Shown: positions 1,826 to 44,198, counted from the first letter of the stretch. The stretch is 64,000 nucleotides of DNA from an uncultured delta proteobacterium (GCA_903901335.1 CAIUQR010000065.1:4667-68666); one strand, 5' to 3'. A program made the numbers and translations. The notes: generated from the letters alone by a model not told the origin.

Positions 1826-2371
1826 CTATTCTCTCCCCTTAATGGAATCTTTTAAACCTGCAAGCTGTGTCCTGATGCTGCCATCCAGTACCAGGTCTCC
1901 GACTTTAGCTATAATCCCGCCAATCAAAGATGGATCGACACTGGTCGACAGCTCAACTTTCTTGCCTGTTAATTTTTCAAGCGCGGCCTGAACACTGGCC
2001 TGCAATTCATCACTGAGTGCTACCGCTGAAATAACGGTTCCGTGGCTGACATTCTTTTCAATATCAACCAAAATCTGAAATGCTTCTGCAATCTCGGGGA
2101 GTATTTCAGCACGTTTTTTCTGCACCAGCAGGTTCAGAAAATTCCCCATGATTTTATCTACTCCGATAGAGTTGACAAGTCCAACCATGACCTTTTCCCT
2201 CACATCCAAAGGATAGAGTGGATTGGTCAAAGCGTCACCAACTTCCGGATGAGAGATATAAAGCCCGGCCACTCCCTGGAGAGCTTCATTATAGGCTTCG
2301 TAGTTATCGTTTTCCAAACCAACAGCAAAAAGTGCCTTGGCATATCTTCGCGCTAGGATTGTCTGTTTCAC
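1826..2371 (-). CDS. atpH: F-type ATP synthase delta (OSCP) subunit
   Basis: 181-aa ORF directly abutting the atpA start, with a 4-nt overlap with the b-subunit stop. N-terminus ARRYAKALF is OSCP-like. Confidence 0.9.
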   Translation of the reverse strand: MKQTILARRYAKALFAVGLENDNYEAYNEALQGVAGLYISHPEVGDALTNPLYPLDVREKVMVGLVNSIGVDKIMGNFLNLLVQKKRAEILPEIAEAFQILVDIEKNVSHGTVISAVALSDELQASVQAALEKLTGKKVELSTSVDPSLIGGIIAKVGDLVLDGSIRTQLAGLKDSIKGRE

Positions 2372-3084
2372 TGGACGGCCCCTACTTTAACTAGATAATC
2401 TTCAACGATCTTCACCTGATCGGCAGCTGTGAGGTTTTTGATAATCAATTCTTCAGCCATCGCTGCAGCCTGATCTGCAATCTCGTTCTTCAGCATCCTT
2501 CTGGCCTCAGTTATTTCATTCTGGATGGCCATCTCCGCCTGGCGTTGGATGTCGGCTGCCGTCTGCTCCGCTTTTTCAATGATTCTGGCCTTCTCAATCT
2601 GAGCCTGAGCAATGGCCTTCTCGACTATTGTGTCTATATCTTTCTCAACGCTTGCCAGTTTAGCCTCAAAATCTCTATAGGACTTTTCAGCCTCTGCTTT
2701 GCGCGCCTGGAGATCCTCGATCTCGGTCCTGATCTTGTTTTTTCGGCTGCTGAGTGCGGCTGCAATTGGTTTAGCAGCAAACTTTATCAAAATGATCATC
2801 AGGGCTATAAAGTTCATAACCCTGAAGCCCAGGTTCCACAATTTTTCTTTCGAGAGACTGTCATGATGAACGGGTCCATGCTCGGCGGCAGCATGTTCCG
2901 CCGCCTTACCCTCATGGACCGCTGCACCCGCCGTTGGTGCGCCTGCAGCAACTACCTGGCCGGCCTTTGCTTCCATATGGGGGTTGGCGGGCTCTGTCGC
3001 CCAAACCGTCCCACAGGACAAAGCAAACCAAAGTGTTGCCGCGACCAGAACCGTTCCCCTGGCTACTCGCTTCACTCCTTTCAT
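2368..3084 (-). CDS. atpF: F-type ATP synthase b subunit with N-terminal signal-like and Ala/His-rich extension
   Basis: 238-aa ORF. The C-terminal 160 aa have one TM helix (FIALMIILIKF) plus a long charged coiled coil typical of subunit b. The N-terminal 75 aa are extra (see findings). Confidence 0.85.
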   Translation of the reverse strand: MKGVKRVARGTVLVAATLWFALSCGTVWATEPANPHMEAKAGQVVAAGAPTAGAAVHEGKAAEHAAAEHGPVHHDSLSKEKLWNLGFRVMNFIALMIILIKFAAKPIAAALSSRKNKIRTEIEDLQARKAEAEKSYRDFEAKLASVEKDIDTIVEKAIAQAQIEKARIIEKAEQTAADIQRQAEMAIQNEITEARRMLKNEIADQAAAMAEELIIKNLTAADQVKIVEDYLVKVGAVQ

Positions 3085-8515: not shown

Positions 8516-11500
8516 TCAAATCGGCAGTATGTGTGTCTCTTCCTGGATCTGGTGAACCCCCAGGAGGAGAAGACCGTTGCGCCCATCAATGGACACCCGG
8601 TCACCAAAATGGATCCTCTTGTCGCCGATCTCACAATACTGGCCCGTCTCGTAGACCTTCAAATGCTTGCAGCCAACCACGCAGGTCTTCTCCAATCGGA
8701 CTGCAACTACGGAGGCGTGGGAGGTCTGCCCACCCCGCGAGGTGATCAGGCCATCCGCCATGTCAATCACTTTGATATCCTCCGGCACCGTATCCTGGCG
8801 GAAAAGAATGAGCGGTGTACCAGGGTCGGATTTTCGTAGCTCTCTGATATTGCTCTCTGAAAATACCGCACGGCCTGCCAGGGCGGAACCGGAGACACCG
8901 ACACCTTTCCCTAGAATGTCCAGCGACAGGCTATCGGTCTCGACAAAGACATTCAGGTGCTCCTTTTTTTTGATGGTTATCATATCACGGGTCTGCAACA
9001 GATAGAGCTCATCCGGGGTTGGGCCTTCGAAGGTGAATTCCATCTCCTGCGGATTCCAGTTCTTTTCGTAAACCAGATCCCTCGAAATGGAGAGCAGCCT
9101 TTCATAGATAGCCGGAAACCTGCGCTCCAGAGTTTCGTTCACGTCCCTCCCATCCAGTTCCGCCTGCTCGACTGAGACTGCAAAACTGGTAACCAGCCCG
9201 GAAACGATATCTTCCCCCTGATCCCCATAGGCATAATCCCCCCAGAGGGCAACACGGGAGACCTTCCGGTAGGGATGGGCGGTGAAGAGGACCCCTGCTC
9301 CCGCCTCATCGGAACGGTTGCCGAAGACCATGGCCTGGACGATCACTGCGGTCCCCCAGGAGTCCGAGACATCCATGATCTTTCGATAATCCGAGGCCTT
9401 GAAGGTGTCCCAGGAATCCAGAACCATCTCGATGGCATTGACCAGCTGCAGCCAGGGATCATCGGGAATGCCATACCCGCGTTTCCGGATCAGTTTCTGA
9501 TAGGAAAGGGCCAGCTCCCTCATCTGTTCATGAGAAAATTCTCTTTTTAGATCAACATGATACTTGGCCTTAGCCTCATCCATCAAGCCCTGAAAATCCT
9601 CACGCTGCATCCCCGAAATCATCGCCCAGGACTGCAGAAAACGACGATAGTTATCCCAGGAAAGATAGGCATTGCCATGATCCCTTACATACTCTTCGAT
9701 CAGTTCCTCATTCATGCCGACGTTGTGGATCGTGGCCATCATCCCCGGCATCGAGATTGCCCCACCGCTGCGGACCGAAAGAAGAAGCGGCCGATCCGGA
9801 GAGCCATAGATTTTGCCGGTTATTTTTTCAATCTCGGAGAGAGAGGCGCGGATACGCTGCATGAACTCGTCCCGTGCCTTGGAAAAACCAAAGACCGCCT
9901 CCCGGCAGCGAAAGACCTCCGTCGTGATGATAAAGGCAGGAGGAACCGGTTTCTTTTCAGCGGCAAGGGTTATCAGATTATACCCTTTGTTTCCCAGATG
10001 AATCAGATCGTTTGTATAGGGATTGATTCGGTGCAGGGAGGAAATCGTTTTCTCAGGATTATAGGTCATAAGCAGGTCGAGGCCTTGCTTGTCCAGGATA
10101 TCCTTCTGATTCTCCAAAGTCTGAATTATCCTGACGATAAAGTTATCCAGATGCTGCAGACCGAAGGTGGAGGAGATCAGATCCCGGAAAAATGATTCAG
10201 ACAGGCGATAAATGGTATTGGTCATCTCATCACCATCCCATTGAGACCGGTATTTAGTCACCAGATCGCTCGGGCTGATCTGGGGGATAATAATGGACAG
10301 ATTGTTCTGATGGATGTTTGTATAGAAGGCATAGATGATATCTTTTACGCCCTCCGACAACCCACGGAAAATATCCATATACTGGGTATAGGAGAAGCGT
10401 CTGACCTTAAGAGAGTTGGTCAGCAATGACATATAGATATCAAGACGTCGTGAGGTTATTCCATCAATCCTTAAGGCCTGCAGGAAAAGCTTCAGGCATT
10501 TGACGATCCGAAAGAAGGTCGCCTGCGTGATAAAAGAGAGGTTGACGGTCTCGGGAAGCTTTTCCAGATAGATATTAGCCAGGTTTTCCAGACGAAATGT
10601 CAGGCCCAGACTGTCGAATTTCCGTTCCCGGTAGCGGCCGTAGACGGAAGGAATATCGACTGCAATATGCCGTTTATAATAGATATCCTCCCGTGCCTGG
10701 AAATGCTCGGGGGAGAGGATTATCTCTTTCAGACTTTCAAGACTCTTCAAGAGGGCCTCAAGACAACCGACCGTACCGCAGACCTCAAGCTCCGTAAGCA
10801 AACCCTCCATCTCCGGAAACCCTTCCTGGGCGGCCTGGAGCAGCTCCGTCTGCAGCTCCTGAAAGCCCAGATTGTATTTCCGGTGCAGGAGCTTGAACAT
10901 CTGCACCAGAAGCTCAAACCGACGGAGCTCCAGGGGATCGAGGTCAGCCTGGGAGGCCAGAAATTTTTTCAGATCGTCGTTTTCCCAATCAAGAATATCC
11001 TGCAAGCTGTGAAAATGAAGCTGCTCGATTATCCGCCCGGCAAGACGATTCTGATCATCGATAAACAGACCCTCTACCGCCACCTGATTGTACACCTCTT
11101 CCGGCAGATACGGCTGGAGCAGATGTTTCTTCCTTGTCTTCCAAAAAAGAAAGATGGCCTTGATAAAATCGACGATCAGGTTGGAGCTCTCGACGTGACT
11201 CTGTTTTCGTAAAAAATGGATCAGGACATCCTTGCGTTTATAGATCTCGTCAAGCTCGGTCGAGACGTCGCGCAATTCACCCTCTGCGCCGATTTCATTA
11301 AAGAAGACCGGCATAAGCTTGGTAAACTGTTTGGCAAGGTTATAGATCGGCTTGATAGGGTGATTCAACAATTCGGAGATATCCCTCTGGAAGAGATCCG
11401 TATCCTTGACACAGGTACCGGTGAGTTTCAGATTGATGATGAGGGCCGAAAAAAGCGTCGAGCACCATTTGGGCTCCTGCTCGATCAAGGTCAGCCAGAC

Positions 11501-12799
11501 CCGGATATTATTCAAATGGGCGGGATTGGTCAGCGGCTGCCAATCCTCATCCACACCTGCGACCTTGGCATATTGGAAGCCGAAACGGACCACGCCCCAC
11601 AGAAAGGCCTCCACCATGCGGCTATTGCCGCGGTTGAACACCTCTCCCCCAAGGACCTGGATGCATTGGAGAGAGGTATGGGGATATTTATTGACATTTG
11701 CTTTCAGCAGCTGAAAGGTCGTCAACAGAAATTCTTCAATCTCCTCAAAGCTCTGCTGCCTGATCAGCTGCACCAGACTGCGATTGATCTCTCTTAAGGT
11801 CTCTTCATGGATGAGGTACAGACCCTTCGTATCCATGATCTTGAAGAGGAAGAGCAGCTTCTGATTTTCGACAAAATGGTCCCCTGGACGATTTTGCCCC
11901 TGCCCTTCTTCTTCCGGCGTGGAGTCGATCTTCGCTAATCTCTCAGGTATTTCCTTATAAAATCGAACGATATCGATATGGGCCGGCAGATCGAGAATGC
12001 GGCTCAGTCCACCTCCCGGATCAGACTCGATATCAATTGCGACCAGGGTATCCCGGTGTTTCTGCATGGACTCGTGGGAGATCGAAGAAAAGAGCTGCTC
12101 CGAATGAAAATCGTTACGCAGAATGCCACACCGCTCCAGAAACCAGGGCATCGGATCGTCTTCCAGCAGCCAGTACTCATAATTTTTCAGAAGGATAGCA
12201 CGCATGAGCTGCGCAATCGGCCGATAATCAAAAGATGTCGGTTGCCGGGCACTGAAGGCAAGCAGATGGCCGGCAACTTTTTTCATCGGGTGCTGCCCCT
12301 GCACAATATGCATCAGGGCCGGTCCGTCGCCTTTTTCAAACTCCCGCATCATCGTAAAAATATGATTCAATGGTTTTTCAAACCTTTCGAGATCGCCAGC
12401 CTCCAGCAGACTGATCGTTTTCTCGATCCAGGCAATCTTCGCTTCAATGATCAGGGAGAGAAGGGTTTCATTTTTTTCCGAATCGTTGATCGCCTCGAAA
12501 AACAAGCGCGCAAACAGCTCAACGGCCGTAGGTCCTTCCTGATGACGAACAAAATGCCCAGTGTTTTTCAGCACAAAACTCCTGAAAACCGGCAAAATGA
12601 GACTCCAGTTCCGGAATGGATGGCAGATTTCATAGAGCAGACTCTCAAGACTTGAATACAACCCCTTAAATTTCTTCATCATATCCAAGAGAAGAAGCAG
12701 CTCCGGATCGATAACCACATTCTCGGCAGTCTCCAGGAGATTTGCCCTCAAGGCATCCGACTCGATTACCGCCGGCGAGGTGTGTATTTTCATTTCCAT
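8516..12799 (-). CDS. Large PEP-utilising-family protein: about 900-aa unknown helical N-domain, PPDK-type ATP-grasp and phosphohistidine swivel domain, with no PEP/pyruvate TIM barrel
   Basis: 1427-aa ORF. The C-terminal third carries VFGN..D.AGAGVLFTAHP...GDQGEDIVSG and LYLLQTRD (PPDK nucleotide domain) and LITSRGGQTSHASVVA (swivel His). The protein ends about 60 aa after that. Confidence 0.85.
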   Translation of the reverse strand: MEMKIHTSPAVIESDALRANLLETAENVVIDPELLLLLDMMKKFKGLYSSLESLLYEICHPFRNWSLILPVFRSFVLKNTGHFVRHQEGPTAVELFARLFFEAINDSEKNETLLSLIIEAKIAWIEKTISLLEAGDLERFEKPLNHIFTMMREFEKGDGPALMHIVQGQHPMKKVAGHLLAFSARQPTSFDYRPIAQLMRAILLKNYEYWLLEDDPMPWFLERCGILRNDFHSEQLFSSISHESMQKHRDTLVAIDIESDPGGGLSRILDLPAHIDIVRFYKEIPERLAKIDSTPEEEGQGQNRPGDHFVENQKLLFLFKIMDTKGLYLIHEETLREINRSLVQLIRQQSFEEIEEFLLTTFQLLKANVNKYPHTSLQCIQVLGGEVFNRGNSRMVEAFLWGVVRFGFQYAKVAGVDEDWQPLTNPAHLNNIRVWLTLIEQEPKWCSTLFSALIINLKLTGTCVKDTDLFQRDISELLNHPIKPIYNLAKQFTKLMPVFFNEIGAEGELRDVSTELDEIYKRKDVLIHFLRKQSHVESSNLIVDFIKAIFLFWKTRKKHLLQPYLPEEVYNQVAVEGLFIDDQNRLAGRIIEQLHFHSLQDILDWENDDLKKFLASQADLDPLELRRFELLVQMFKLLHRKYNLGFQELQTELLQAAQEGFPEMEGLLTELEVCGTVGCLEALLKSLESLKEIILSPEHFQAREDIYYKRHIAVDIPSVYGRYRERKFDSLGLTFRLENLANIYLEKLPETVNLSFITQATFFRIVKCLKLFLQALRIDGITSRRLDIYMSLLTNSLKVRRFSYTQYMDIFRGLSEGVKDIIYAFYTNIHQNNLSIIIPQISPSDLVTKYRSQWDGDEMTNTIYRLSESFFRDLISSTFGLQHLDNFIVRIIQTLENQKDILDKQGLDLLMTYNPEKTISSLHRINPYTNDLIHLGNKGYNLITLAAEKKPVPPAFIITTEVFRCREAVFGFSKARDEFMQRIRASLSEIEKITGKIYGSPDRPLLLSVRSGGAISMPGMMATIHNVGMNEELIEEYVRDHGNAYLSWDNYRRFLQSWAMISGMQREDFQGLMDEAKAKYHVDLKREFSHEQMRELALSYQKLIRKRGYGIPDDPWLQLVNAIEMVLDSWDTFKASDYRKIMDVSDSWGTAVIVQAMVFGNRSDEAGAGVLFTAHPYRKVSRVALWGDYAYGDQGEDIVSGLVTSFAVSVEQAELDGRDVNETLERRFPAIYERLLSISRDLVYEKNWNPQEMEFTFEGPTPDELYLLQTRDMITIKKKEHLNVFVETDSLSLDILGKGVGVSGSALAGRAVFSESNIRELRKSDPGTPLILFRQDTVPEDIKVIDMADGLITSRGGQTSHASVVAVRLEKTCVVGCKHLKVYETGQYCEIGDKRIHFGDRVSIDGRNGLLLLGVHQIQEETHILPI

Positions 12800-25207: not shown

Positions 25208-25930
25208 TCAATGGGCATGCTCCTGAGCCTGGGCACAGTAGACAACCGCAAGCAACACAAAGACCATTGCCTGAACCAGAGAAACTAGAACACCCAGCAT
25301 CATGATGGGCAGCGGCGCGAAAAAAGCACCTGCCAGCATGAACAGGATTGCCAGAAGGGTCTCTTTGGCCATGATATTACCGAAAAGACGAACAGAGAGT
25401 GAAACTAAGCGGGCAATATTACTAATCAACTCGATGGGCAGCATCAAGGGAACCAGCCACCAGAGGGGCCCCATGAAATGTTTATAATATTTTAAGCCAT
25501 GGGCACGTAAACCGATCACATGGTGGGTAGCCCAGACGATGATGGTCAAGGCAAGGGTTGTATTGATGCTGGATGTTGGAGACATCAGACCGGGAATGAG
25601 GCCGATCAGGTTGCCAACTGCGATATATAAAGCAAAGGTCGACAGCATCGGAAAGAGTGCATCAGCCATTTCTCTGCCCATATTCTCAACAAAGAAATCA
25701 TCCATGCCACCAATAAGAATTTCCCAGAAATTCTGACCGCTTCCAGGAACCATCTCCAGATTGCCGAGGGTCATTTTGGAGACAACAATGAGAAATATCA
25801 TTACCAGCCAGGTATAGGTCATATACGGTTCACACAACTTTTCCAGTAAAGTATGCCCGACAAAGTCATGCGGCACTGGAAGTCCCAACTTCTCCAGAAT
25901 AATTGATATAAAAAGTATCGGATGTTCCAT
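25208..25930 (-). CDS. atpB: F-type ATP synthase a subunit
   Basis: 240-aa polytopic ORF with the essential Arg motif LSVRLFGN. Confidence 0.93.
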   Translation of the reverse strand: MEHPILFISIILEKLGLPVPHDFVGHTLLEKLCEPYMTYTWLVMIFLIVVSKMTLGNLEMVPGSGQNFWEILIGGMDDFFVENMGREMADALFPMLSTFALYIAVGNLIGLIPGLMSPTSSINTTLALTIIVWATHHVIGLRAHGLKYYKHFMGPLWWLVPLMLPIELISNIARLVSLSVRLFGNIMAKETLLAILFMLAGAFFAPLPIMMLGVLVSLVQAMVFVLLAVVYCAQAQEHAH

Positions 25931-25939
25931 AACCCCTTA

Positions 25940-26398
25940 TTACCTCCTCCCACTGAAAAAATAGTGCCTGGCCACGCCCAATGCCGTGAATGTGACAGTA
26001 AACACTACTGTTGACAACCCCAGAAGCAAACCAATGATATTATCTCTGCTGATTTTATGACTCTTGATAATAACCAGCAAAACAATACCAATGATAAGAA
26101 TCCGGAACCAGAACTTGATTATTAGGCCAAATTTTCTTTTCTTGATTTCCTTTTTCTCGCTTTCGCCTTCCTGAACCGTAGTCATGGATTCAAGGAATCC
26201 AACGACATCCTTATGTGAGACCCGAAAACTCAGGATGGAGATAATCCCTCCCGCCAATACGGGCCAGGCAAACGACCACGAAAAAATAATCCAGGAACCA
26301 ACCGTTAACATCAGAAGATATAGCCAACTTAAAAGCTGTATCTTCTGCGGGGACAGCAAATCATCAACCACGTCATCCTCTATCGTCTTTTCCGTCAT
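25940..26398 (-). CDS. atpI: ATP synthase protein I-like membrane protein
   Basis: The track ORF is 178 aa. I prefer the ATG at 26398 (MTEKTIEDD). It is a multi-TM protein directly upstream of atpB. The call rests mainly on position. Confidence 0.55.
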   Translation of the reverse strand: MTEKTIEDDVVDDLLSPQKIQLLSWLYLLMLTVGSWIIFSWSFAWPVLAGGIISILSFRVSHKDVVGFLESMTTVQEGESEKKEIKKRKFGLIIKFWFRILIIGIVLLVIIKSHKISRDNIIGLLLGLSTVVFTVTFTALGVARHYFFSGRR

Positions 26399-26642
26399 TC
26401 TTGTTGTTTTTGTCGTTTTTGTCTTTAACACGCCAGAGGATTTGAAGCAACGTCTTAAAGCCTGCAACAATACCAAATGCCAGCCCTATAAAAGTAAACC
26501 AGGGAGCAGTACGACCATTAAATACTTTCTGGTCCAGAAGAATCCCGCCTCCCAGACCGACAAATATACATGCGACAAAGGTAAAACCGATATGCCCATA
26601 ATTTGCAAGTAAGTCGATCATCTCATTCTTTAAATCAGACAT
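26373..26642 (-). CDS. atpZ: AtpZ/AtpI2-like small membrane protein
   Basis: The track ORF starts at GTG 26654; the ATG at 26642 gives MSDLKNEM. It has two TM helices with the GLGGG.LLD and GLAFGIVAG pattern of the AtpZ family. First gene of the atpZ-I-B-E operon. Confidence 0.6.
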   Translation of the reverse strand: MSDLKNEMIDLLANYGHIGFTFVACIFVGLGGGILLDQKVFNGRTAPWFTFIGLAFGIVAGFKTLLQILWRVKDKNDKNNKNDGKDDRG

Positions 26643-35730: not shown

Positions 35731-36489
35731 ATGAGGACATGCACGCAACAATTACGGCTGCCAAAAAATGTTAGAAAGGTGGGAACTGAGGAGACCTTCT
35801 CTTTCCTCTGCCACCCCGGTATTCCCTGTTTCACCCATTGCTGCCGACAGCTGGAACTTGCGCTTACCCCGTACGATGTCCTGCGTTTGAAAAACGCTGC
35901 CGGACTTACTTCATCCGACTTTCTCGAACGGTATGTGATTATTGAAAGAGAAGAGCAGGACACCTTTCCCCGCCTCTACCTGACCATGGTCGATGACGGC
36001 AAGGCAAGTTGCGTCTTTGTCTCCGATCATGGCTGCACCGTCTATGCAGACCGGCCGGGCGCCTGCCGGGCATACCCGATAGGACGTGCCGCCATACTGA
36101 AAGACCAGAACACCCCTGAGGAATTTTATGTCCTTCTCGAAGAAAACCATTGTCAGGGCTTCGGTCAAGACCGGCACCAGAGCCCGAAACAGTACTGTCA
36201 GGACCAAGGCCTTTCTTCCTATAACCGCTTTAACGATGCCGTGGCAGCCATTCTCCAGCATGAAAAGATCAGACAGGGCATGATTTTGTCTGAGGAACAG
36301 ATTGAGACATACGTTCTCGCCCTTTATGATCTTGACACCTTCCGGACAAAACTGCTGACCGGTCAGATGCCCGATGTTATCTTGGACGCCCCCCGAAAAC
36401 AGTCATTGGAAGAGGATGAGGAACTGCTTTTTTTTGCTATAGACTGGCTGAGAAACTTTCTTTTTGGCCGATATTCATCAAACCGATAA
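35731..36489 (+). CDS. YkgJ-family (UPF0153) cysteine-cluster protein
   Basis: 252-aa ORF with CHPGIPCFTHCC plus a second cluster, CVFV...GCTVYADRPGACRAYP. Confidence 0.72.
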   Translation: MRTCTQQLRLPKNVRKVGTEETFSFLCHPGIPCFTHCCRQLELALTPYDVLRLKNAAGLTSSDFLERYVIIEREEQDTFPRLYLTMVDDGKASCVFVSDHGCTVYADRPGACRAYPIGRAAILKDQNTPEEFYVLLEENHCQGFGQDRHQSPKQYCQDQGLSSYNRFNDAVAAILQHEKIRQGMILSEEQIETYVLALYDLDTFRTKLLTGQMPDVILDAPRKQSLEEDEELLFFAIDWLRNFLFGRYSSNR

Positions 36490-36507
36490 TGATCTCATCC
36501 CCTGTTT

Positions 36508-37131
36508 ATGCTTAAACTTATTATCTTTGATTGCGATGGCGTCATGTTTGACTCCCGGATCGCCAATCGCGAATACTACAATCACCTGCTCGTTCACTTC
36601 GGCAGACCGATTATGGATGAAGATGAACTTACCTATGTGCATATGCATAATGTAAGAGAATCGGTCCTCTATATCTTCCGCCATTATCCCGATCAGGATT
36701 TGGCCGCAGTGGACACCTATCGCAGGAACCTGGATTACACTCCCTTTTTCCGCTTCATGCACACGGAAAAGGATTTAGTTCAATTCCTGGAATTTGCAAA
36801 GAAGAGATTTAATCTGGCGATTTCCACGAACCGCACAACCACCATGACGCCGCTGCTAAAGGAATTCAACCTCCAAGGATATTTTGGCAAGGTTATGACT
36901 GCTGAAAATGCAAGGAAGCCGAAACCGGCCCCCGATGCCCTTTTCGAAATTCTTGAACATTTTGGCTGTCAGACTGACGAGGCACTCTATATCGGAGATT
37001 CGATCATAGACAGGCAACATACCGAAGCCGCGGGCATGCGACTTATTGCCTTTAAAAACCCGACACTTCCAGCTGAATTTCATGTTTCCAGTTTTATGGA
37101 AATCTGCTCCTTGGAGCCATTCATGCAATAG
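36508..37131 (+). CDS. HAD-superfamily phosphatase
   Basis: 207-aa ORF with motif I FDCDGVMFDS, motif II ISTN and motif IV YIGDSIID. Confidence 0.85.
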   Translation: MLKLIIFDCDGVMFDSRIANREYYNHLLVHFGRPIMDEDELTYVHMHNVRESVLYIFRHYPDQDLAAVDTYRRNLDYTPFFRFMHTEKDLVQFLEFAKKRFNLAISTNRTTTMTPLLKEFNLQGYFGKVMTAENARKPKPAPDALFEILEHFGCQTDEALYIGDSIIDRQHTEAAGMRLIAFKNPTLPAEFHVSSFMEICSLEPFMQ

Positions 37132-37144
37132 ACCGACAGTACAA

Positions 37145-38293
37145 TCAGGACAAGGAGCCTTCAGACTCGTTCACCTCATCCACCCGTTTCACCCCTTCCA
37201 TCAAGAGCATCATAAAATCCCCGATCTCAGCGGCCTTCATCTCTTGAGGTGAAAGACCAACTGTAAATCGATAAACGCCTTCCTTCTCGGCGAGTATAGA
37301 AAAAATTGCATCCTGGTTGTGCTTATCGGCATAACTTGCATTGATGATACACCCTTCACGGAAAGAAACCTTGGCATTTCCTCTGGAGAGCTCGAGGGAG
37401 AGCGCCCCTGTCTTTTGATGCATATGGAATATCTGAAAAAGTTCGGCCGGGGCCATATCCTTGATTCTCCCATGCATACAGGCCTCGAATTCACGCGTGC
37501 GGACCGTATTGGACTTGGCGAGCCTTTCTGCCAGTAACTTGGCCATAAAAAGCTGTACTGAGGCGGCCTCGCCCATCAAGCGGCCGAAATCATCGCCACT
37601 GATACCAAGGACTTTGGTTTCCCTCGTGGCCCTGATGGATGATTTGGCAATTTTATTTCCGAAATAACTCATCTCGCCACAGACATCACCTTCTCGCAAG
37701 GTCGTAATCTTAACCTGATCGTCCTCGACACTCACCTCACCCGACAGGATAATATAGAGATGTTCGTTGATTTCACCTTTTATGATAAGATACGAACCGG
37801 AATAAACGACCTGTTCCTGCAGACAATCGACGAACCGCTTCAATTGAGTCTGGGGAAAGGCCTTCACCAACGGATAACCGGATATCTTGGCCATAAGTAC
37901 CTGTTGTACGGCAGTAAGCAAGGAACCCTCTTGAACACCATACTCACTTGCGTCAGAGTCGACCCGGATAAATTTGATCAAACCTGTACAGCCGCTGCAG
38001 GTAAACACCCGTGGCTTTTTTCCACCGGCGTCCTCCTTTTCCGTCTCATCAAGAAGTTCGAAAAGCAATTGGGTCATCTCCCGGACCAGGATCAAACACC
38101 CCTCTTTGTCTTTTGGAAAGGTTAACGCCTTCTCCGACAGAACAAGGTGCTCTTCAAGCCTGTACAGAGGGCAGTTATTGTCTTCAATTATTTTGAATAC
38201 GGCTTTAAACGATCCCATACAATGGCAGAGAAGAAAAGAGTTTGAAACAGGTTTCCGGAGACCTTTCCAATCCTCCAAGGAAGTTCTTTGCAC
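37145..38293 (-). CDS. Three-domain signalling protein: Cys-containing N-domain, cyclic-nucleotide-binding domain and PATAN (DUF4388) domain
   Basis: 382-aa ORF. The cNMP module has GEINEHLYIILSGEV...REGDVCGEMSYF. The C-terminal ELFQIFHMHQKTGALSL....AKVSFREG.II.A matches DUF4388. The start is uncertain (GTG 38293 or ATG 38218). Confidence 0.72.
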   Translation of the reverse strand: MQRTSLEDWKGLRKPVSNSFLLCHCMGSFKAVFKIIEDNNCPLYRLEEHLVLSEKALTFPKDKEGCLILVREMTQLLFELLDETEKEDAGGKKPRVFTCSGCTGLIKFIRVDSDASEYGVQEGSLLTAVQQVLMAKISGYPLVKAFPQTQLKRFVDCLQEQVVYSGSYLIIKGEINEHLYIILSGEVSVEDDQVKITTLREGDVCGEMSYFGNKIAKSSIRATRETKVLGISGDDFGRLMGEAASVQLFMAKLLAERLAKSNTVRTREFEACMHGRIKDMAPAELFQIFHMHQKTGALSLELSRGNAKVSFREGCIINASYADKHNQDAIFSILAEKEGVYRFTVGLSPQEMKAAEIGDFMMLLMEGVKRVDEVNESEGSLS

Positions 38294-38512
38294 CCAATAT
38301 ACTAATTGTCCTGTTGATAGCGAGAAATTTTTCCATATAAAAAAGGATTTTATAAAAACCCCCTTTTAAAAGCAAATTTTCAAATTCTTTGCTATGCTAT
38401 TTTTTGTTTTTGTTATTTCATCATAATTCTGCTATGTTTTGATTGTTTCCAGAAATCAGTATAACGGTAATAATTCATCATATTTTCTCAACACCTTATC
38501 AAGTGATTTCTT

Positions 38513-40987
38513 ATGGGCGTCGCAACCAAACAGCTTGAGACCATCTTCAAGGAAATCAATGACCGTTTCAGAACACATCGTTATATCTCAATAAAGCCTG
38601 GGGATGGCGATCCACCGGAACGGTATGAGGTGACATATACTATCGCCGGACTCCACCAGAACAAGAATAAAGAGATTCATGAGGCAAAACATCACTCCAT
38701 TGCCATAACTATTCCATTCGGTTTTCCTCATTTTCCTCCTAATTGTAAACCCATATCACCTGTTTTTCATCCGGATTTTGATCAGGCAGCCATCTGCATT
38801 GGTGATTTCTGGAACAAAGAAAGCACCCTGACCGATCTGATTTTCCATATCGGGCAAATGATCTCCGGAGAAGTCTTTTCAACAGAAAACGCCTTTAATG
38901 AAGAGGCTGTTATCTGGTACAGACAACATAAGGACCGTCTTCCTTTTGAAGTTCTTGATATTTCGAAAGAATCCCCTGCATCTGCGCTCCCCGTTCACGA
39001 AGAGGATTCTTTTACTGCACTGGAGTCTCTTGAGATCGATACCATTGAGGAATCTGATTTTAAGTCGGACTTCGATTCCTTTGCCCCCGGTACAGCTACC
39101 GAGCCTCAAGAAAAGTCACCACAGGCAATGGAAGTCGATATTGATCTTCTGCAGTTAATGGTCAAGCAAAAGCGTTTTTATACCCTCTATAAACACCTAC
39201 AAGCTCTCCCGGTCGACAAGCAATTCAGCAATTTTGATACATTAAAAAATGATGCCTATCTTGAATTGACCAAAGCGAAACAGCTCTTTCAGCAGGGCCT
39301 CGATTATGAACATAAAGGCCAGCCGGGCAAGGCCTTGGAAAAATTTCAACTGTTGACAGCAGCCGTTTCGGACTATCCTGAAATCGAGGAGAGTGTCAAT
39401 CGGGCCAAAAGCGCTTCCAACCTCCTCTACGATTATCTAGAAGAACCCGAAAATAAACCTAAGCAGGCAAGCATGCCGGAGATTGATGTAAGCTCCAAAA
39501 ATGTTCCGAAAAACGAGAAGCTTACTTTTTTTAATGAGAAACCGGAAATACGACTTCCCGTTTTCCCTATCGTTATTGCCGGTGCCTCAGTCATCCTTTT
39601 GAGTTTAGTGATCTTTGTCTTATCTTCCAGTAATTCCCAATTCAAACATGCGGAAGACATGTATTCAGATTGTCAGGTTCTTCTTGAAAAAAACAACTTT
39701 ATCGGCGCTGAACAAAAATGTAACGAGGCTCTCTCCACCGTTAAAAGCATCCAATTCTTAAAAGGTACGGAAAGGGTTGTACTCGCAAATACCATTCAGA
39801 CAACACTTAATTCTCCAAAATTGCGTCAGGGCCTTACAGGCATGGTTTTGAGAAATGGTCGGTATGTCCCCAAAAGCGATGAAGACGCCTTGATTGCTTT
39901 TAATAAGGCGAGCGATGAGGGGGATGCATTCATGGCTAATCTTTCATGGAAAGAGGCAAAGGACCGTTATCAACTCGCCATTACTATCCATTCCAAGATC
40001 GGCACGATAGATACGTCTGCTCTTGAAAAGATCGGCAGGATCAAAAAAAACATGGCACTTGCCCAGGTGAACCTCTTTATTGAAGAGGGAAGGCAATTAA
40101 AAGAATCAGGGGATCTTGAGAAGGCCCTGATCACCCTTGAAAAGGCGCAGGAAACTGCAAAATCTTTGGACGATGCGGTAATGCCTGCCACAATCAAATC
40201 AATCGAGCCTCTCTTATTCATCACCCGGTTCCTTAGATCAAAAAAGGTCGGGGATACCTATTTTGCTGCGGGAGACTGGCAGAATGCCGCTGAACTCTAT
40301 CAAAAAGCTACTGATACTGTAAAAAACATTTCGCCCCCACCGGCGGCAGAATTAGCTGAATTAAATCAAAATAAGGCCAAAGCGGACCTCTTTGCCGCTA
40401 TACAAAGCGGGAAGGAAGCTTTTAACAATGCCCAATGGGATGAAGCTATACGCAGTTATGAATCTGCGATCAGACTGCTGAAAGAAAACAGTGAAATTCT
40501 CAAACAGGTAAACTCCGACGAGAACCGCCAGAAAATCTCCCGGATTATGCTGCAGGCATCTATTATCAGGGATAAGCAGGATGTTGCCAGAAAACTGAAA
40601 GAGGGAAAGAATAAACAGGCTATTGAGAAACTCCAGTCAATCATTGATACGGTTACTAAGAGTTCTTTCAACAGGGAAGAAGAATTTCAACAGGTAGCCA
40701 AAGAGGCAAACCTTTCCATCGCAGAAGCGAAGAAGAATCAGCTTATCTCTGAGAGCGTTGCTTATCTGGTAGAAAATTACAAAGATATCATCTTAAAGAA
40801 TTATTCGGCTGCAAAGAACGATTCTTTGAGCGACCCGAAGGCAACATTTGTAAAAAAACTTGACGAACGGCTGCTTTTCAAGATTGAATGCACTGACAAC
40901 GGGCAAGGAAAACCGCTCCGCCTGATTATGAACTACATCTATGATCCGGCCAACAAACAGTGGAAATTCTATAGTGAAACTCAATAG
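38513..40987 (+). CDS. Single-pass membrane protein with N-terminal UBC/E2-like domain and TPR-like repeats
   Basis: 824-aa ORF. Residues 1-150 follow the E2 core pattern (ITIPFGFPHFPPNCKPISPVFHPDFDQAAICIGDFW). There is one TM helix (PIVIAGASVILLSLVIFVL). The following 450 aa hold repeated W/Y..A...Y..A TPR-like units. Confidence 0.7.
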   Translation: MGVATKQLETIFKEINDRFRTHRYISIKPGDGDPPERYEVTYTIAGLHQNKNKEIHEAKHHSIAITIPFGFPHFPPNCKPISPVFHPDFDQAAICIGDFWNKESTLTDLIFHIGQMISGEVFSTENAFNEEAVIWYRQHKDRLPFEVLDISKESPASALPVHEEDSFTALESLEIDTIEESDFKSDFDSFAPGTATEPQEKSPQAMEVDIDLLQLMVKQKRFYTLYKHLQALPVDKQFSNFDTLKNDAYLELTKAKQLFQQGLDYEHKGQPGKALEKFQLLTAAVSDYPEIEESVNRAKSASNLLYDYLEEPENKPKQASMPEIDVSSKNVPKNEKLTFFNEKPEIRLPVFPIVIAGASVILLSLVIFVLSSSNSQFKHAEDMYSDCQVLLEKNNFIGAEQKCNEALSTVKSIQFLKGTERVVLANTIQTTLNSPKLRQGLTGMVLRNGRYVPKSDEDALIAFNKASDEGDAFMANLSWKEAKDRYQLAITIHSKIGTIDTSALEKIGRIKKNMALAQVNLFIEEGRQLKESGDLEKALITLEKAQETAKSLDDAVMPATIKSIEPLLFITRFLRSKKVGDTYFAAGDWQNAAELYQKATDTVKNISPPPAAELAELNQNKAKADLFAAIQSGKEAFNNAQWDEAIRSYESAIRLLKENSEILKQVNSDENRQKISRIMLQASIIRDKQDVARKLKEGKNKQAIEKLQSIIDTVTKSSFNREEEFQQVAKEANLSIAEAKKNQLISESVAYLVENYKDIILKNYSAAKNDSLSDPKATFVKKLDERLLFKIECTDNGQGKPLRLIMNYIYDPANKQWKFYSETQ

Positions 40988-41012
40988 ATAGAGAAACAAA
41001 CCAAAATCAAGG

Positions 41013-41070
41013 CATTGAGTACGGGAAGAACAACAGGGCGGTTTACGCCCGTGTCTGCCTGTACTCAATG
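41013..41070. terminator. Long composite stem-loop between the convergent E2-like gene and the cooJ-like gene
   Basis: Outer arms CATTGAGTAC/GTACTCAATG enclose GGGCG-GTTTA-CGCCC. On the minus strand it is followed by CCUUGAUUUUGGUUUGUUU. Confidence 0.45.
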
Positions 41071-41116
41071 AAGCAGTGGAGGTCGGCATCCGTCTTTAGT
41101 GGTTCATCTCAGGACA

Positions 41117-41377
41117 TTAATGCTCATGATGATGATTGTGATGATGATGGTGTCCGCACTCCCCACCATGCTCGTGACCGCCTGCCTCCCGTAGGGCCAT
41201 TTCAAGCAGTTCATTGACCTTGATCATTGCCTTGACAGCAGCATCAATATGTTCGGCGATTTTTTCCCGTCCTTCTTCGCGTGCTACCGCGGACCACTTC
41301 CGGCACTCTTCTCCGTGGCCGAGGTTATGCTCAATCCAATGCGGCAACAAAACCCGCAATTTCTCCGTCTGATTCAT
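41117..41377 (-). CDS. CooJ-like histidine-rich nickel metallochaperone
   Basis: 86-aa ORF with residues 13-21 HWIEHNLGH (H-W-x2-H-x3-H), a helical middle and a C-terminal GGHEHGGECGHHHHHNHHHEH tail. Confidence 0.62.
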   Translation of the reverse strand: MNQTEKLRVLLPHWIEHNLGHGEECRKWSAVAREEGREKIAEHIDAAVKAMIKVNELLEMALREAGGHEHGGECGHHHHHNHHHEH

Positions 41378-41398
41378 GCTCTTACCCCTTCAAAAAAA

Positions 41399-41590
41399 TT
41401 ATTGTTTTTGCAGAAAGACTTTTCCGGTCAAAAAATCTATATAATGAATCGTCATACCAGCCAGTTCTGTCGGTCCTTCAAAAAGGGTGCTTATCCGTAC
41501 ACCCGTGGTCAGCACGTCCAGCCTGGTAATATTTTCCTTCACCAATTCCGCCTTTCCATCACGCTCAACCACCGCACTCATCTGGCACAT
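41399..41590 (-). CDS. cooT: CooT-family small nickel-binding protein
   Basis: 63-aa ORF starting MC (Cys2), with the pattern V.V....G......I..L.........TLF.......I..ID...G.V.L as in R. rubrum CooT. Confidence 0.72.
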   Translation of the reverse strand: MCQMSAVVERDGKAELVKENITRLDVLTTGVRISTLFEGPTELAGMTIHYIDFLTGKVFLQKQ

Positions 41591-41614
41591 GGTACATTCT
41601 CCTTACATAGAAAA

Positions 41615-42586
41615 CTACACAAGAAAACGGAATTCCCCTTTACCCAGAAGGTCATGCAGGTGGAGTAGCCCCACCAGTTTCCGTTTATGATCAACTATCG
41701 GCAGGACTGTTACCTCATGACGTTGCATGATGCTCAAGGCATCTGCTGCAAGTATCTCACCATCAATGCTGATGGGATCTGCCGTCATAATATCTCTCGC
41801 CCTCAACCCCTGGAAATCCAGCTCACCAACAACATACCGACGGACATCTCCATCGGTTACGATACCGGTTACATGTCGATCTCCATTGACAATAATCACG
41901 GCGCCAATATTTTTTTCGTTAAGTATCTGAATGGCCCTGAGTGCCGACTCGTCTCCATTAACGACAGGAATCCGATCATCGGTCAGCATCACCTCACCAA
42001 CCTTGACTTTCAATCGTTCCCCCAGGCTCCCACCCGGATGGTTTTCCCGAAAATCGGCGACTTGAAATTGTTTTCTGTTCTGCAGGACAACGGACAGCGC
42101 ATCCCCCATCGCCAGCGTTGCCGTCGTACTGGCCGTCGGCGCCAGTCCCAGAGGGCATGCCTCTCTTGGAACACCAATATCGAGGACTATATCGGAGGCC
42201 TTGGCCAGGGTCGAATCCATGCCACCCGTCATCGCAATAATTGCTGTTCCCCTTTTTTTCAGACTGGCCAGAAGGGCATTGAGCTCATACGTTTCGCCGG
42301 AATACGAAATAGCAATAACGACATCGGTCGACATGACCATACCAAGATCCCCATGCATGGCCTCTACCGGATGAAGAAAAAAAGACGGGGTACCGGTGCT
42401 GTTTAAGGTGGCGGTGATCTTCTGGCCTATGATCCCCGATTTCCCTATACCGGTTATCACCAACCTGCTTGGACAATCTACGATGAGATCAACAGCTTGA
42501 ATAAATTCGTCACCAATACGTTCGCGAACGCTTGCCAGCCCCTGCTCTTCAATGAGAAATACTTTCTGTGCTTCCTGAATTGACAT
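41615..42586 (-). CDS. kpsF: Arabinose-5-phosphate isomerase (SIS plus tandem CBS domains)
   Basis: 323-aa ORF with GIGKSG, the LHPVEAMHGDLGM SIS motif and two CBS repeats. Confidence 0.9.
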   Translation of the reverse strand: MSIQEAQKVFLIEEQGLASVRERIGDEFIQAVDLIVDCPSRLVITGIGKSGIIGQKITATLNSTGTPSFFLHPVEAMHGDLGMVMSTDVVIAISYSGETYELNALLASLKKRGTAIIAMTGGMDSTLAKASDIVLDIGVPREACPLGLAPTASTTATLAMGDALSVVLQNRKQFQVADFRENHPGGSLGERLKVKVGEVMLTDDRIPVVNGDESALRAIQILNEKNIGAVIIVNGDRHVTGIVTDGDVRRYVVGELDFQGLRARDIMTADPISIDGEILAADALSIMQRHEVTVLPIVDHKRKLVGLLHLHDLLGKGEFRFLV

Positions 42587-43031
42587 TATTTAGCTCATTT
42601 TTCTTCTACTTCGCATTACCCTGTCCCTTATATCGGCAGTAAAGGGTACCATATTTCGATTCAGTCCTCTTGTTATTTATCCAAAGAGAGATACTTGTCC
42701 CAATCATTAAATGAACCCATCCGGAAATGCCCATAGCTCATCAAGGGCCTGTATCATGCCTTATGCCCCCCCAAAGTAATCACCTGCCCATAGATTATCA
42801 AGCTCGGAGTCAGAGAATTGCCTTAACTATTCCGTCAATTTTCAGATACCAAACTGACGCTCCTGCCTGTTTCGGTCGTTTCCTCACGTATTTCCTTAAT
42901 TTTCCTTGACATCGTTTCTACTGCGGTTTCAATATAAAACTCATTTTCTAAAATAATCCTTGCAGGATTTCTTATCATAGCTACCTTACAGGGATGATTT
43001 TTTCAAGCTAACGTCATAACGGAGATATCAC

Positions 43032-44198
43032 ATGTCAAATTATCTTTTTACATCGGAATCTGTTTCAGAAGGACATCCTGATAAAGTTGCAGACCAGATT
43101 TCCGATGCCATCCTGGACGCCATTCTTACCCAGGATAAATATGCCCGTGTTGGTTGCGAGACTATGGTCACTACCGGTATGGCCATCATCGCCGGAGAGA
43201 TTACCACTACCGCATGGGTCGATTTACCCGAGGTCGTCCGTCATACTATTCGTGACATCGGCTACAATTCTTCCGATATGGGCTTTGACTGGCAATCCTG
43301 TGCCGTCCTTTCCTCCATCGATAAACAGTCTGCGGATATTGCCCAAGGGGTCAATGAGGGGTCCGGTCTGGACCTTGAGCAGGGGGCAGGCGACCAGGGA
43401 CTGATGTTCGGGTATGCCTGCAACGAGACCGACGTCCTCATGCCCTTGCCGATTACCCTTGCGCATCGTCTGATGAAGAAACAATCTGAGGTTCGAAAAT
43501 CACATCGCCTGCCCTGGCTCAGACCGGATGCCAAGAGTCAGGTAACGGTCGAATATGAAGACAACTGCCCCAAACGTATCGAGGCTGTAGTCCTGTCTAC
43601 CCAGCATAATCAGGATATCAGCTATAACGACCTGAAAGAGGCGGTGATGGAAGACATTATCAAGCCCATTCTCCCCTCCGACATGCTCGATGCTCAGACG
43701 AAATTTTTCATCAATCCGACCGGCAGATTCGTCATCGGAGGTCCTGTTGGAGACTGCGGCGTTACCGGACGGAAAATCATCGTCGACACCTATGGCGGCA
43801 AAGGTTCTCACGGTGGCGGTGCCTTTTCCGGCAAGGATCCTTCCAAGGTCGACAGGTCTTCTTCCTATATGGGACGGTATGTGGCTAAAAATATCATTGC
43901 AGCAGGTATAGCAACCGAGGTGGAGGTCCAGATTGCCTATGCGATAGGTATCTCCAGGCCTGTTTCGATCAATGTCAACAGTTTCGGCACCGGTCGGATT
44001 TCCGATCAGAAGATCAAAGAGCTCATCACTGAATTTTTCGATCTCCGTCCAAAGGCTATTATTCAGCATCTCGATCTGCTTCGTCCCATCTATAAGGCAA
44101 CCGCCGCTTATGGCCATTTCGGCAGAAAACATGCCAATTTTACCTGGGAACAAACCGATAAGGCAGCGGAATTAAAGGCTGCGGCTGGTTTAGTCTGA
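43032..44198 (+). CDS. metK: S-adenosylmethionine synthase
   Basis: 388-aa ORF with [20 protein letters not shown] and [16 protein letters not shown]. Confidence 0.97.

Follow-up and report, generated by a model that had tools for sequence, protein, structure and literature searches.

A 64,000-nucleotide stretch of DNA from an uncultured delta proteobacterium (GCA_903901335.1 CAIUQR010000065.1:4667-68666), here called the window, encodes an 824-residue membrane protein that begins with a ubiquitin-conjugating enzyme (E2, or UBC) fold. The favoured explanation, held with modest confidence, is that this UBC domain would serve as a docking module resembling the ubiquitin E2 variants (UEVs), carried on a transmembrane (TM) scaffold or sensor of tetratricopeptide repeats (TPR), and would not conjugate a ubiquitin-like protein (Ubl). 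The protein spans the inner membrane once, with a cytoplasmic N-terminus, and is encoded at a constant locus across the Desulfobulbales. Its UBC domain originated in a Ubl operon and has been cut off from any gene for an activating enzyme (E1), a Ubl or a ligase (E3) at the locus. Together with the adjoining cytoplasmic helical domain it would form a UEV-like binding platform, linked through one TM helix to a periplasmic TPR-like region that may act as sensor or scaffold. The analysis shows the fold, topology, domain architecture, synteny and ancestry, the lack of E1, Ubl and E3 genes near the gene, and the exchange of Cys for Arg in orthologs; docking, partnership with a neighbouring PATAN-domain regulator and sensing by the ectodomain are inferred.

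Translation of the window yields the open reading frame (ORF) predicted by the first-pass annotation, which was made from the sequence alone, with the His-Pro-Asp (HPD) motif at residues 86-88 and Cys95 where that annotation had placed them. The parts of the gene are listed below, with AF2 standing for AlphaFold2 and pLDDT for its per-residue confidence.

38513-40987, + strand: complete ORF, 824 aa, with UBC-like domain, linker, helical domain, TM helix, TPR-like ectodomain and C-terminal beta domain
38513-38947, + strand: UBC (E2) fold domain, cytoplasmic, residues 1-145 (Pfam UQ_con, PDB profile search, AF2, Foldseek)
38744-38746, + strand: Cys78 codon, the second conserved Cys, co-varying with Cys95
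38768-38776, + strand: His86-Pro87-Asp88 motif, aligned to the His-Pro-Asn (HPN) motif of E2s
38795-38797, + strand: Cys95 codon, at the E2 catalytic-cysteine position
38972-39130, + strand: acidic disordered linker, residues 154-206 (AF2 pLDDT below 50; of varying length and poor conservation in orthologs)
39140-39427, + strand: cytoplasmic helical (TPR-like) domain, residues 210-305 (AF2 pLDDT about 90)
39563-39631, + strand: single TM helix, residues 351-373 (hydropathy scan, Lys/Arg bias; AF2 helix 354-392)
39638-40807, + strand: predicted periplasmic helical-hairpin (TPR-like) solenoid, residues 376-765 (TPR_2, AF2, Foldseek)
40808-40984, + strand: C-terminal small beta-rich domain, residues 766-824 (four-stranded sheet in AF2)

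Residues 1-145 are confirmed as a true UBC (E2) fold by Pfam matches, a PDB profile search that finds nothing except E2s, AF2 and Foldseek. Pfam UQ_con (PF00179) matches the whole protein at E=9e-5 (22.5 bits, against a gathering cutoff of 27) and residues 1-150 at E=5.7e-6 (26.4 bits, slightly below that cutoff). The same model matches 28 of 28 orthologous N-terminal domains (N-domains), all at E<=0.01 and the best at 9e-9. With phmmer the protein also picks out E2s in the PDB (E about 5e-4). A profile built from the 28 N-domains finds E2s exclusively (best E=1.2e-5), placing HPD on HPN and C95 on the catalytic Cys of 2pwq and UBE2C.

As modelled by AF2, residues 1-150 reach a pLDDT of 85.8 and a predicted TM-score (pTM) of 0.82. 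The model consists of a helix (2-19), a four-strand meander (25-29, 37-49, 55-66 and 77-80), a long flap, and two further helices (106-118 and 130-138). When this model is compared with the PDB by Foldseek, the best 50 matches are classical E2s throughout (UbcH5, Ube2K, UbcH7, Ubc13), with probability 1.00 and TM-scores of 0.61-0.69 over about 145-150 columns; sequence identity to these eukaryotic E2s is just 10-18%. The likeness is low in score yet specific, beyond chance. The first-pass annotation had likened the first 150 or so residues to the E2 core, and the superposition of the model on the UBC fold bears this out.

The segment 38744-38812 translates to CKPISPVFHPDFDQAAICIGDFW, which fixes the positions of Cys78, His86-Pro87-Asp88, Cys95 and Trp100. 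The Asn of HPN is not universal in the E2 superfamily, and Asp in its place is compatible with superfamily membership. HPD in place of HPN does argue against canonical isopeptide catalysis.

In a homology search, full-length orthologs number in the hundreds, with identities of 34-89%; those that bear names come from Desulfocapsaceae, Desulfofustis and Desulfoprunum. Relatives occur in at least 183 species of the GTDB species genomes, and the best 80 of them are nearly all labelled Desulfobulbales or broader parent taxa. Among these 80 are Desulfofustis glycolicus DSM 9705, Desulfopila aestuarii DSM 18488, Desulfoprunum benzoelyticum DSM 28570 and Desulfosediminicola flagellatus. In these loci the order upstream is SecDF, CxxCxxCC, HAD and a divergent gene for a protein with cyclic nucleotide monophosphate (cNMP)-binding and PATAN domains, which is not always present. 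The E2-like gene follows, and after it come DUF8180 and CooT (again not always), SIS-CBS, MetK, AhcY, BirA, DsrD, DsrB, DsrA and PGI. Because the same order holds over 31-89% protein identity, even at 31-39%, the gene is a vertically inherited syntenic core gene of Desulfobulbales with a constant slot near dsrAB.

In 85 orthologous loci, taken with flanks of up to 10 kb on each side, no gene for an E1, a Ubl, JAB or RING turned up. Likewise, no ThiF/E1, beta-grasp (Ubl), JAB or RING domain was found in the scanned major ORFs of the window (mostly >=150 aa), a scan that reaches 38 kb upstream and 23 kb downstream of the gene. The claim that no E1 or ubiquitin partner lies nearby is thereby extended to the orthologous loci. 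The major ORFs of the window are all housekeeping genes: ATP synthase subunits, AlaRS, GAPDH, chorismate synthase, DnaJ, UbiD, a MiaB-like protein, BamD, SecDF, MetK, AhcY, BirA, DsrD/B/A, PGI, Rpe, DprA, RpoD, DnaG, TIM, DivIVA and MetRS.

In the metagenome-assembled genome of Desulfocapsa sp. NORP205, two contigs (loci L033 and L045) each have a copy of the gene with the same neighbours; this is probably strain heterogeneity in the bin and not paralogy. No mention of the family was found in the literature searched, and its database names are automatic only.

The wider family shows where the domain came from. An exhaustive search with the N-domain profile retrieves, from clusters formed at 50% identity, 1134 representatives with E<=1e-3, of which 605 reach E<=1e-10. 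Eukaryotic E2s score only about 28 bits against it and would fail in a library that large, so the matches are bacterial relatives. Residues were counted in 262 of the representatives, aligned to the profile. The His-Pro-x motif is HPD in 237 and HPN in 21; position 95 is Cys in 200, Arg in 38, Ser in 6, Ala in 3 and Lys in 3, with others making up the remainder. The family splits in three: an HPD/Cys clade, to which the window protein belongs; a large Arg95 group with the same E2-TM-TPR-beta architecture; and an HPN/Cys group. The HPN/Cys group differs at the C-terminus, where its members have Zn-ribbon-like Cys clusters, anything from none to three TM segments, or no extension at all.

The nearest non-orthologous relatives are the HPN/Cys E2s of operons that encode a YukD-type Ubl, ThiF, JAB and Prok-RING (Pfam defines a Prok-RING_1 family). 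For instance, P0248 comes from an operon with genes for a YukD-like Ubl, ThiF, JAB and VWA/FHA, for two Prok-RING proteins and for two large UQ_con proteins, and the cluster of P0251 encodes YukD, ThiF, FHA, Prok-RING, UQ_con and trypsin. P0236 combines HPN and Cys with a TM helix, a TPR-like ectodomain and the same C-terminal domain, and its gene comes directly after one for a Prok-RING/RDD membrane protein. Several of these E2s have predicted TM segments. The earlier statement that bacterial E2s are soluble does not hold for this group.

The window N-domain is 34% identical to that of P0248 over 144 gapless residues (E=1e-35); its identity to the Arg95 ortholog P0199 is 41%. Since the nearest non-orthologous relatives lie in Ubl operons (34% identity, against 10-18% for eukaryotic E2s), the UBC domain descends from bacterial Ubl-operon E2s, as a domesticated domain and not a eukaryotic import. 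Horizontal transfer of a eukaryotic E2, for example as an effector-like protein, is extremely improbable. It would account for the fact that the best PDB and Pfam matches are eukaryotic classical E2s, but the bacterial operon E2s are far nearer, and the gene is a syntenic chromosomal core gene in an order of free-living anaerobes. Its G+C content (0.42-0.46 in 2-kb windows across the gene) is just modestly under that of the flanks (about 0.48), and the window ORF scan found no mobile-element genes near it.

The Ubl operon of P0248 (L087, 248-12451) is large. In full it encodes a YukD-like Ubl, ThiF, JAB, an unknown 175-aa protein, VWA+FHA, Prok-RING+RDD and Prok-RING, as well as two giant UQ_con proteins in tandem, one of 932 aa and one of 816 aa, the smaller with predicted TM segments. 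We know of no characterised membrane-associated E2 pairs like these.

In the protein's own clade H86, P87, D88, C95 and C78 are invariant across 33 aligned orthologs. Among the 262 counted proteins, 200 have both cysteines, 43 have neither, 19 have Cys78 alone and none has Cys95 alone; Cys78 is never lost ahead of Cys95. Both are 100% conserved in HPN-type E2s. A distance tree of 388 N-domains was made with the Cys78 and Cys95 columns excluded. Fitch parsimony on this tree gives at least 10 independent Cys/non-Cys changes at position 95 in the TM-TPR lineage. No change occurs among 18 of 18 HPN-type proteins, and the three of their contexts that were looked up hold Ubl-system genes.

In Desulfobulbaceae-type orthologs, recovered by a second homology search, position 95 is Arg in 110 of 111 and His in the remaining one, and position 78 is Val or Ala. 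On contigs, the Arg95 proteins occupy the same dsrAB-proximal slot, beside CooT, SIS-CBS, BirA and DsrDBA. The complete chromosome of Desulfolithobacter dissulfuricans (AP024233.1) shows the same arrangement, as does a Desulfobulbus genome. The invariance of HPD and Cys95 that the first-pass annotation looked for is thus seen within the clade of the window protein, and for Cys95 it breaks down in the sister family.

In Cys-less orthologs H86, P87, W100, P72, P76, N129 and A132 are still conserved at about 100%, so the fold and its groove remain under selection. Residues E266, D287, P289 and R297 of the helical domain, invariant in both the Cys95 and the Arg95 clades, and C793, Y808 and W817 of the C-terminal domain, invariant across all clades, persist as well. 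Given Arg95 at the same locus and at least ten independent losses, the comparison of sequences indicates that the conserved family-wide role cannot depend on a Cys95 thioester. Since it was parted from E1, Ubl and RING genes, Cys95 has been under relaxed constraint, with the fold still selected. The first-pass annotation had offered two alternatives, a catalytically competent orphan E2 or a UEV/RWD-like interaction module. These were apt, and the Arg95 orthologs and the repeated loss of Cys push the family-wide function toward the non-catalytic one.

Three of the Arg95 proteins (P0392, P0290 and P0323) are publicly named 'ubiquitin-conjugating enzyme E2' or 'UBC core domain-containing protein'. 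Since these proteins are without the catalytic Cys, calling them enzymes is probably an annotation error.

In the full-length AF2 model (pLDDT 80.4), residues 154-206 and 308-352 are disordered and residues 210-305 form a well-predicted five-helix domain. Helix 354-392 represents the TM helix extending into the periplasm. Beyond it lie helical hairpin repeats at 396-763, with 6-7 long/short helix hairpins across 454-763 and a small beta hairpin at 444-453; residues 772-819 form a four-stranded sheet. In most orthologs the N-terminal flank of the TM helix is the richer in Lys and Arg, and there is no signal peptide. A single TM helix with this charge bias and no signal peptide implies, as a prediction from sequence, that the N-terminus and the E2-like domain are cytoplasmic and the C-terminal ~450 residues outside.

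The Pfam model TPR_2 matches with 40 bits (cutoff 27), strongly only at residues 580-600. Foldseek with the full-length model finds Sti1, LGN and P58IPK (E about 2e-4, global TM-scores poor), and also E2s. The TPR-like repeats are degenerate. Generic TPR matches dominate this search, and none is specific to the C-terminal beta domain. The one TM helix, the TPR-like repeats and the small beta-rich end had all been described correctly. The acidic linker had been drawn too widely: residues 154-206 fit the description, and the helical domain at 210-305 had been merged into it.

Three features of the ectodomain may be noted. First, the C-terminal helix-plus-beta domain is duplicated in tandem in P0024, P0032, P0042, P0062, P0072 and P0090 (alignment columns 945-1056). 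Second, the motif LxSxKLxQGLxGxxLxxGxYV (39812-39871, residues 434-453; S434..G440-L441) makes up a small beta hairpin immediately beyond the membrane. Kept throughout the TM-TPR family, the HPN-type P0236 included, it is a candidate ligand or partner site. Third, Cys387 (39671-39673) and Cys403 (39719-39721) are periplasmic and membrane-proximal, 16 residues apart on adjacent helices, and may form a disulfide staple. They are present in 100% of the Cys95 clade and missing from the Arg95 clade, and their losses in scattered lineages are independent of those of Cys95. On account of these independent losses, a strict link between the C78/C95 and C387/C403 pairs was considered and rejected.

The four cysteines raise another explanation, in which Cys78/Cys95 in the cytoplasm and Cys387/Cys403 in the periplasm act as pairs in a thiol/redox switch or metal site and the UBC fold is only their scaffold. 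This would suit a sulfur-cycling anaerobe with nickel-chaperone genes nearby, those for CooT and a His-rich protein lying immediately downstream. All four cysteines are present in 100% of the window's clade and missing in the Arg95 clade, and the order in which Cys78 and Cys95 are lost agrees with it. It is nevertheless very unlikely. The two pairs come apart in scattered lineages, and HPN-type E2s, in which Cys95 is expected to be catalytic, likewise keep Cys78 and Cys95 without exception. Furthermore, the CooT and DUF8180 genes are convergent to the E2-like gene, and nickel-chaperone genes are dispensable at the locus (DUF8180 is missing in L001 and L012).

The best candidate for a cytoplasmic partner is the divergently encoded PATAN regulator, which carries a cNMP-binding domain in the Desulfocapsaceae clade. 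The immediate neighbours in the window, which had been identified correctly as a divergent cNMP-binding/PATAN protein and convergent nickel chaperones, are as follows.

37145-38293, - strand: cNMP-binding and PATAN (DUF4388/PatA_N) protein, divergent neighbour (Pfam)
38294-38512, no strand: divergent intergenic region, AT-rich, 219 bp, common to both genes
41117-41377, - strand: His-rich 86-aa protein, DUF8180-like, with the tail GHHHHHNHHHEH (matches the DUF8180 gene of orthologous loci)
41399-41590, - strand: CooT, convergent to the E2-like gene

The cNMP/PATAN gene adjoins the E2-like gene in 60 of 75 informative GTDB loci of the Desulfocapsaceae type. It also adjoins in three of four Arg95-clade loci, as a PATAN-only protein (210-229 aa in Desulfobulbaceae). 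The pairing persists despite insertions that split off the upstream block (L036 and L092). This divergent pairing, found in both families and outlasting the insertions, makes the PATAN protein the most plausible partner. PATAN domains are reported to engage in protein-protein interaction with the type IV pilus motor (bioRxiv 10.1101/2021.06.11.447907). A role as obligate partner was rejected, the gene being missing in 15 loci, and the protein stays a candidate partner only.

Several points weigh against the docking explanation. Of 170 proteins in the Desulfocapsaceae clade, 167 keep Cys95 and all 170 keep Cys78, which is purifying selection, in the clade of the window, on residues a pure docking module would not need. 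An E1 or Ubl could act in trans, the search having covered the flanks of the gene at the distances given above. The PATAN gene is absent from L088 and from those 15 loci, where HAD abuts the E2-like gene, and adjacency is a weak sign of a functional link, the whole region being syntenic housekeeping DNA.

The first two points also lend themselves to an active orphan E2, in which an E1 with its gene elsewhere in the genome would charge Cys95 of the Desulfocapsaceae. This E1 might be a ThiF of the operon type, or else a housekeeping MoeB or ThiF acting on a MoaD-, ThiS- or YukD-like carrier. The modifier would be passed to inner-membrane targets under the control of the periplasmic TPR region, and the Arg95 proteins would be later pseudo-enzyme derivatives. 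Such an enzyme is possible but doubtful. The same two-Cys signature is universal in the HPN-type E2s, whose looked-up contexts are Ubl operons; the His-Pro and groove residues are intact; and P0236, an E2-TM-TPR relative adjoining a membrane RING protein, makes membrane-located conjugation plausible for the architecture. On the other hand, the E1, Ubl, JAB and RING genes that it would use are found neither in the 64-kb window nor in the looked-up orthologous loci. Asn substitutions in HPN impair isopeptide formation by eukaryotic E2s, and Asp replaces this Asn in 237 of the 262 family members. Cys95 has also been lost at least ten times with the rest of the protein kept, and orthologs at the same locus have Arg95.

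A search for the operon E1 provides some weak evidence in the same direction. The organisms named among the best 120 of 7780 matches are Planctomycetota, Hydrogenedentes and Sumerlaeota, down to about 57% identity, and no Desulfobulbales are among these 120.

The most novel explanation takes in both families. In it, the Desulfocapsaceae protein would be a working membrane-bound E2 in a housekeeping, non-defence Ubl (or MoaD/ThiS-type) pathway whose E1 and modifier are encoded elsewhere. The periplasmic TPR region would control whether inner-membrane or PATAN-linked targets are modified. Arg95 of the Desulfobulbaceae would imitate the charged state by binding the C-terminal carboxylate of the modifier non-covalently. 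This explanation is unlikely.

The docking explanation leaves room for part of this chemistry. Desulfocapsaceae retain the ancestral Cys78 and Cys95 together with His-Pro-Asp, and residual thiol chemistry (as a thioester carrier or redox switch) could occur there; it would not be needed for the conserved role. The protein looks like an enzyme in transition to a docking module.

Comparison with known systems helps to place the protein. Operons with a YukD-like Ubl, a ThiF-type E1, JAB and Prok-RING are said to have been described computationally by Burroughs, Iyer and Aravind (2011). The window protein shares with the E2s of such operons its gapless, 34%-identical UBC domain, including Cys78/Cys95, W100 and N129/A132. 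Both have a long C-terminal extension, which in the operon E2s can hold TM segments and a helical domain ending in D-[FY]-P; P0236 already has the TM helix, TPR-like ectodomain and C-terminal domain. The operon E2s differ in having HPN and in lying beside E1, Ubl, JAB, RING, FHA and VWA genes (L087 and L090), whereas the window protein has HPD and lies in a housekeeping block without such partners over 38 kb upstream and 23 kb downstream.

Eukaryotic classical E2s (UBE2D/UbcH5, UBE2K, UBE2C, UBE2N) resemble the window domain in fold and in having His-Pro and Cys at the catalytic positions. Apart from its low identity to them and its HPD, the window domain has a His-Cys spacer one residue shorter, is fused to a TM helix and an extracytoplasmic region of about 450 aa, and lacks an E1 or ubiquitin context. 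The UEV pseudo-E2s (Mms2/Uev1a and the UEV domain of Tsg101) have a non-catalytic UBC fold; they are soluble, eukaryotic and bind ubiquitin. A comparable Cys-less state has been reached by the Arg95 Desulfobulbaceae orthologs and by at least ten independent lineages. The window protein itself has C95 and so is not a UEV by definition, but its Arg95 orthologs are.

Ubc6 and UBE2J1/2 have C-terminal tail anchors. They resemble the window protein in holding an E2 domain with a non-canonical active-site motif at the membrane, facing the cytoplasm (the J2-family enzymes UBE2J1/2 are treated in PMC11649903). Unlike the window protein, which would be an N-in type II protein with a large TPR ectodomain, they have no ectodomain and act with E1, ubiquitin and E3s of the endoplasmic reticulum.

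Bacterial UBC-fold proteins are also found in the defence systems of CBASS Cap2, BilB and BubB (PMC11601596, PMC10557695). BubB, like the Arg95 proteins, is without the catalytic Cys, and defence E2s are without the C-terminal helices of the UBC fold (PMC11601596); the window domain has these as helices 106-118 and 130-138. PADLOC finds no defence E2 model in the protein, its sole match being a weak one (E=0.0097) of the unrelated 'chat' model to the TPR region. There is no E1, Ubl or JAB neighbour, and the gene is a syntenic core gene, not part of a defence island. The protein is not a CBASS, Bil or Bub E2. By fold it is a member of the UBC superfamily, and by ancestry a member of the bacterial Ubl-operon E2 lineage, without the operon context and with HPD for HPN.

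Some further observations concern the surroundings. The cNMP/PATAN ORF read from GTG has 382 aa, compared with 345-352 aa in orthologs, and its true start is probably an ATG 25 codons downstream (MGSFKAV...). Its first ~100 residues contain a CSGC motif and are without a Pfam family match, and the PADLOC matches of this protein stem from its cNMP-binding domain alone. The intergenic region has a single weak sigma-70-like match at 38446-38474 (+); the promoter and terminator scan did not rise above shuffled expectation, and an Rfam scan of 36000-43200 found no RNA element. Between the E2-like gene and SIS-CBS, the His-rich gene and CooT make up a small pair of putative nickel chaperones. A nickel link was rejected: both genes are convergent to the E2-like gene, and the His-rich gene is missing from many orthologous loci.

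Farther away, the ORF at 8516-12799 (-; 1427 aa) matches Pfam (PPDK_N, PEP-utilizers mobile domain) in its C-terminal third only, leaving about 970 N-terminal residues without a match at E<=1e-5. The ATP synthase genes are split: one group, at an end of the window (302-3084, -), comprises atpA, atpH and atpF, and the other, about 22 kb away (25208-26476, -), comprises atpB (subunit a) and atpI.

To our knowledge, bacterial UBC-fold proteins come almost solely from mobile, sparsely distributed E1/Ubl/JAB operons, many of them for phage defence. Here an E2 domain from such operons has become fixed as a single-locus core gene of a whole sulfur-cycling order. What is new is a bacterial E2 domain that has been orphaned, anchored in the membrane and domesticated across an order, and that comes with a natural pair of Cys95 and Arg95 orthologs. 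The Arg95 proteins also flag a database problem, being automatically annotated as 'ubiquitin-conjugating enzyme E2'. The sister families at one locus represent the 'before' and 'after' of the loss of a catalytic Cys, and they offer a tractable pair for the change from E2 to UEV-like protein. Cultured strains exist for both, with Cys95 in Desulfofustis glycolicus, Desulfopila aestuarii and Desulfoprunum benzoelyticum and Arg95 in Desulfolithobacter dissulfuricans. If the Desulfocapsaceae protein were a working E2 and the Desulfobulbaceae protein an Arg95 receptor, a transition from enzyme to receptor would have been caught at one orthologous locus.

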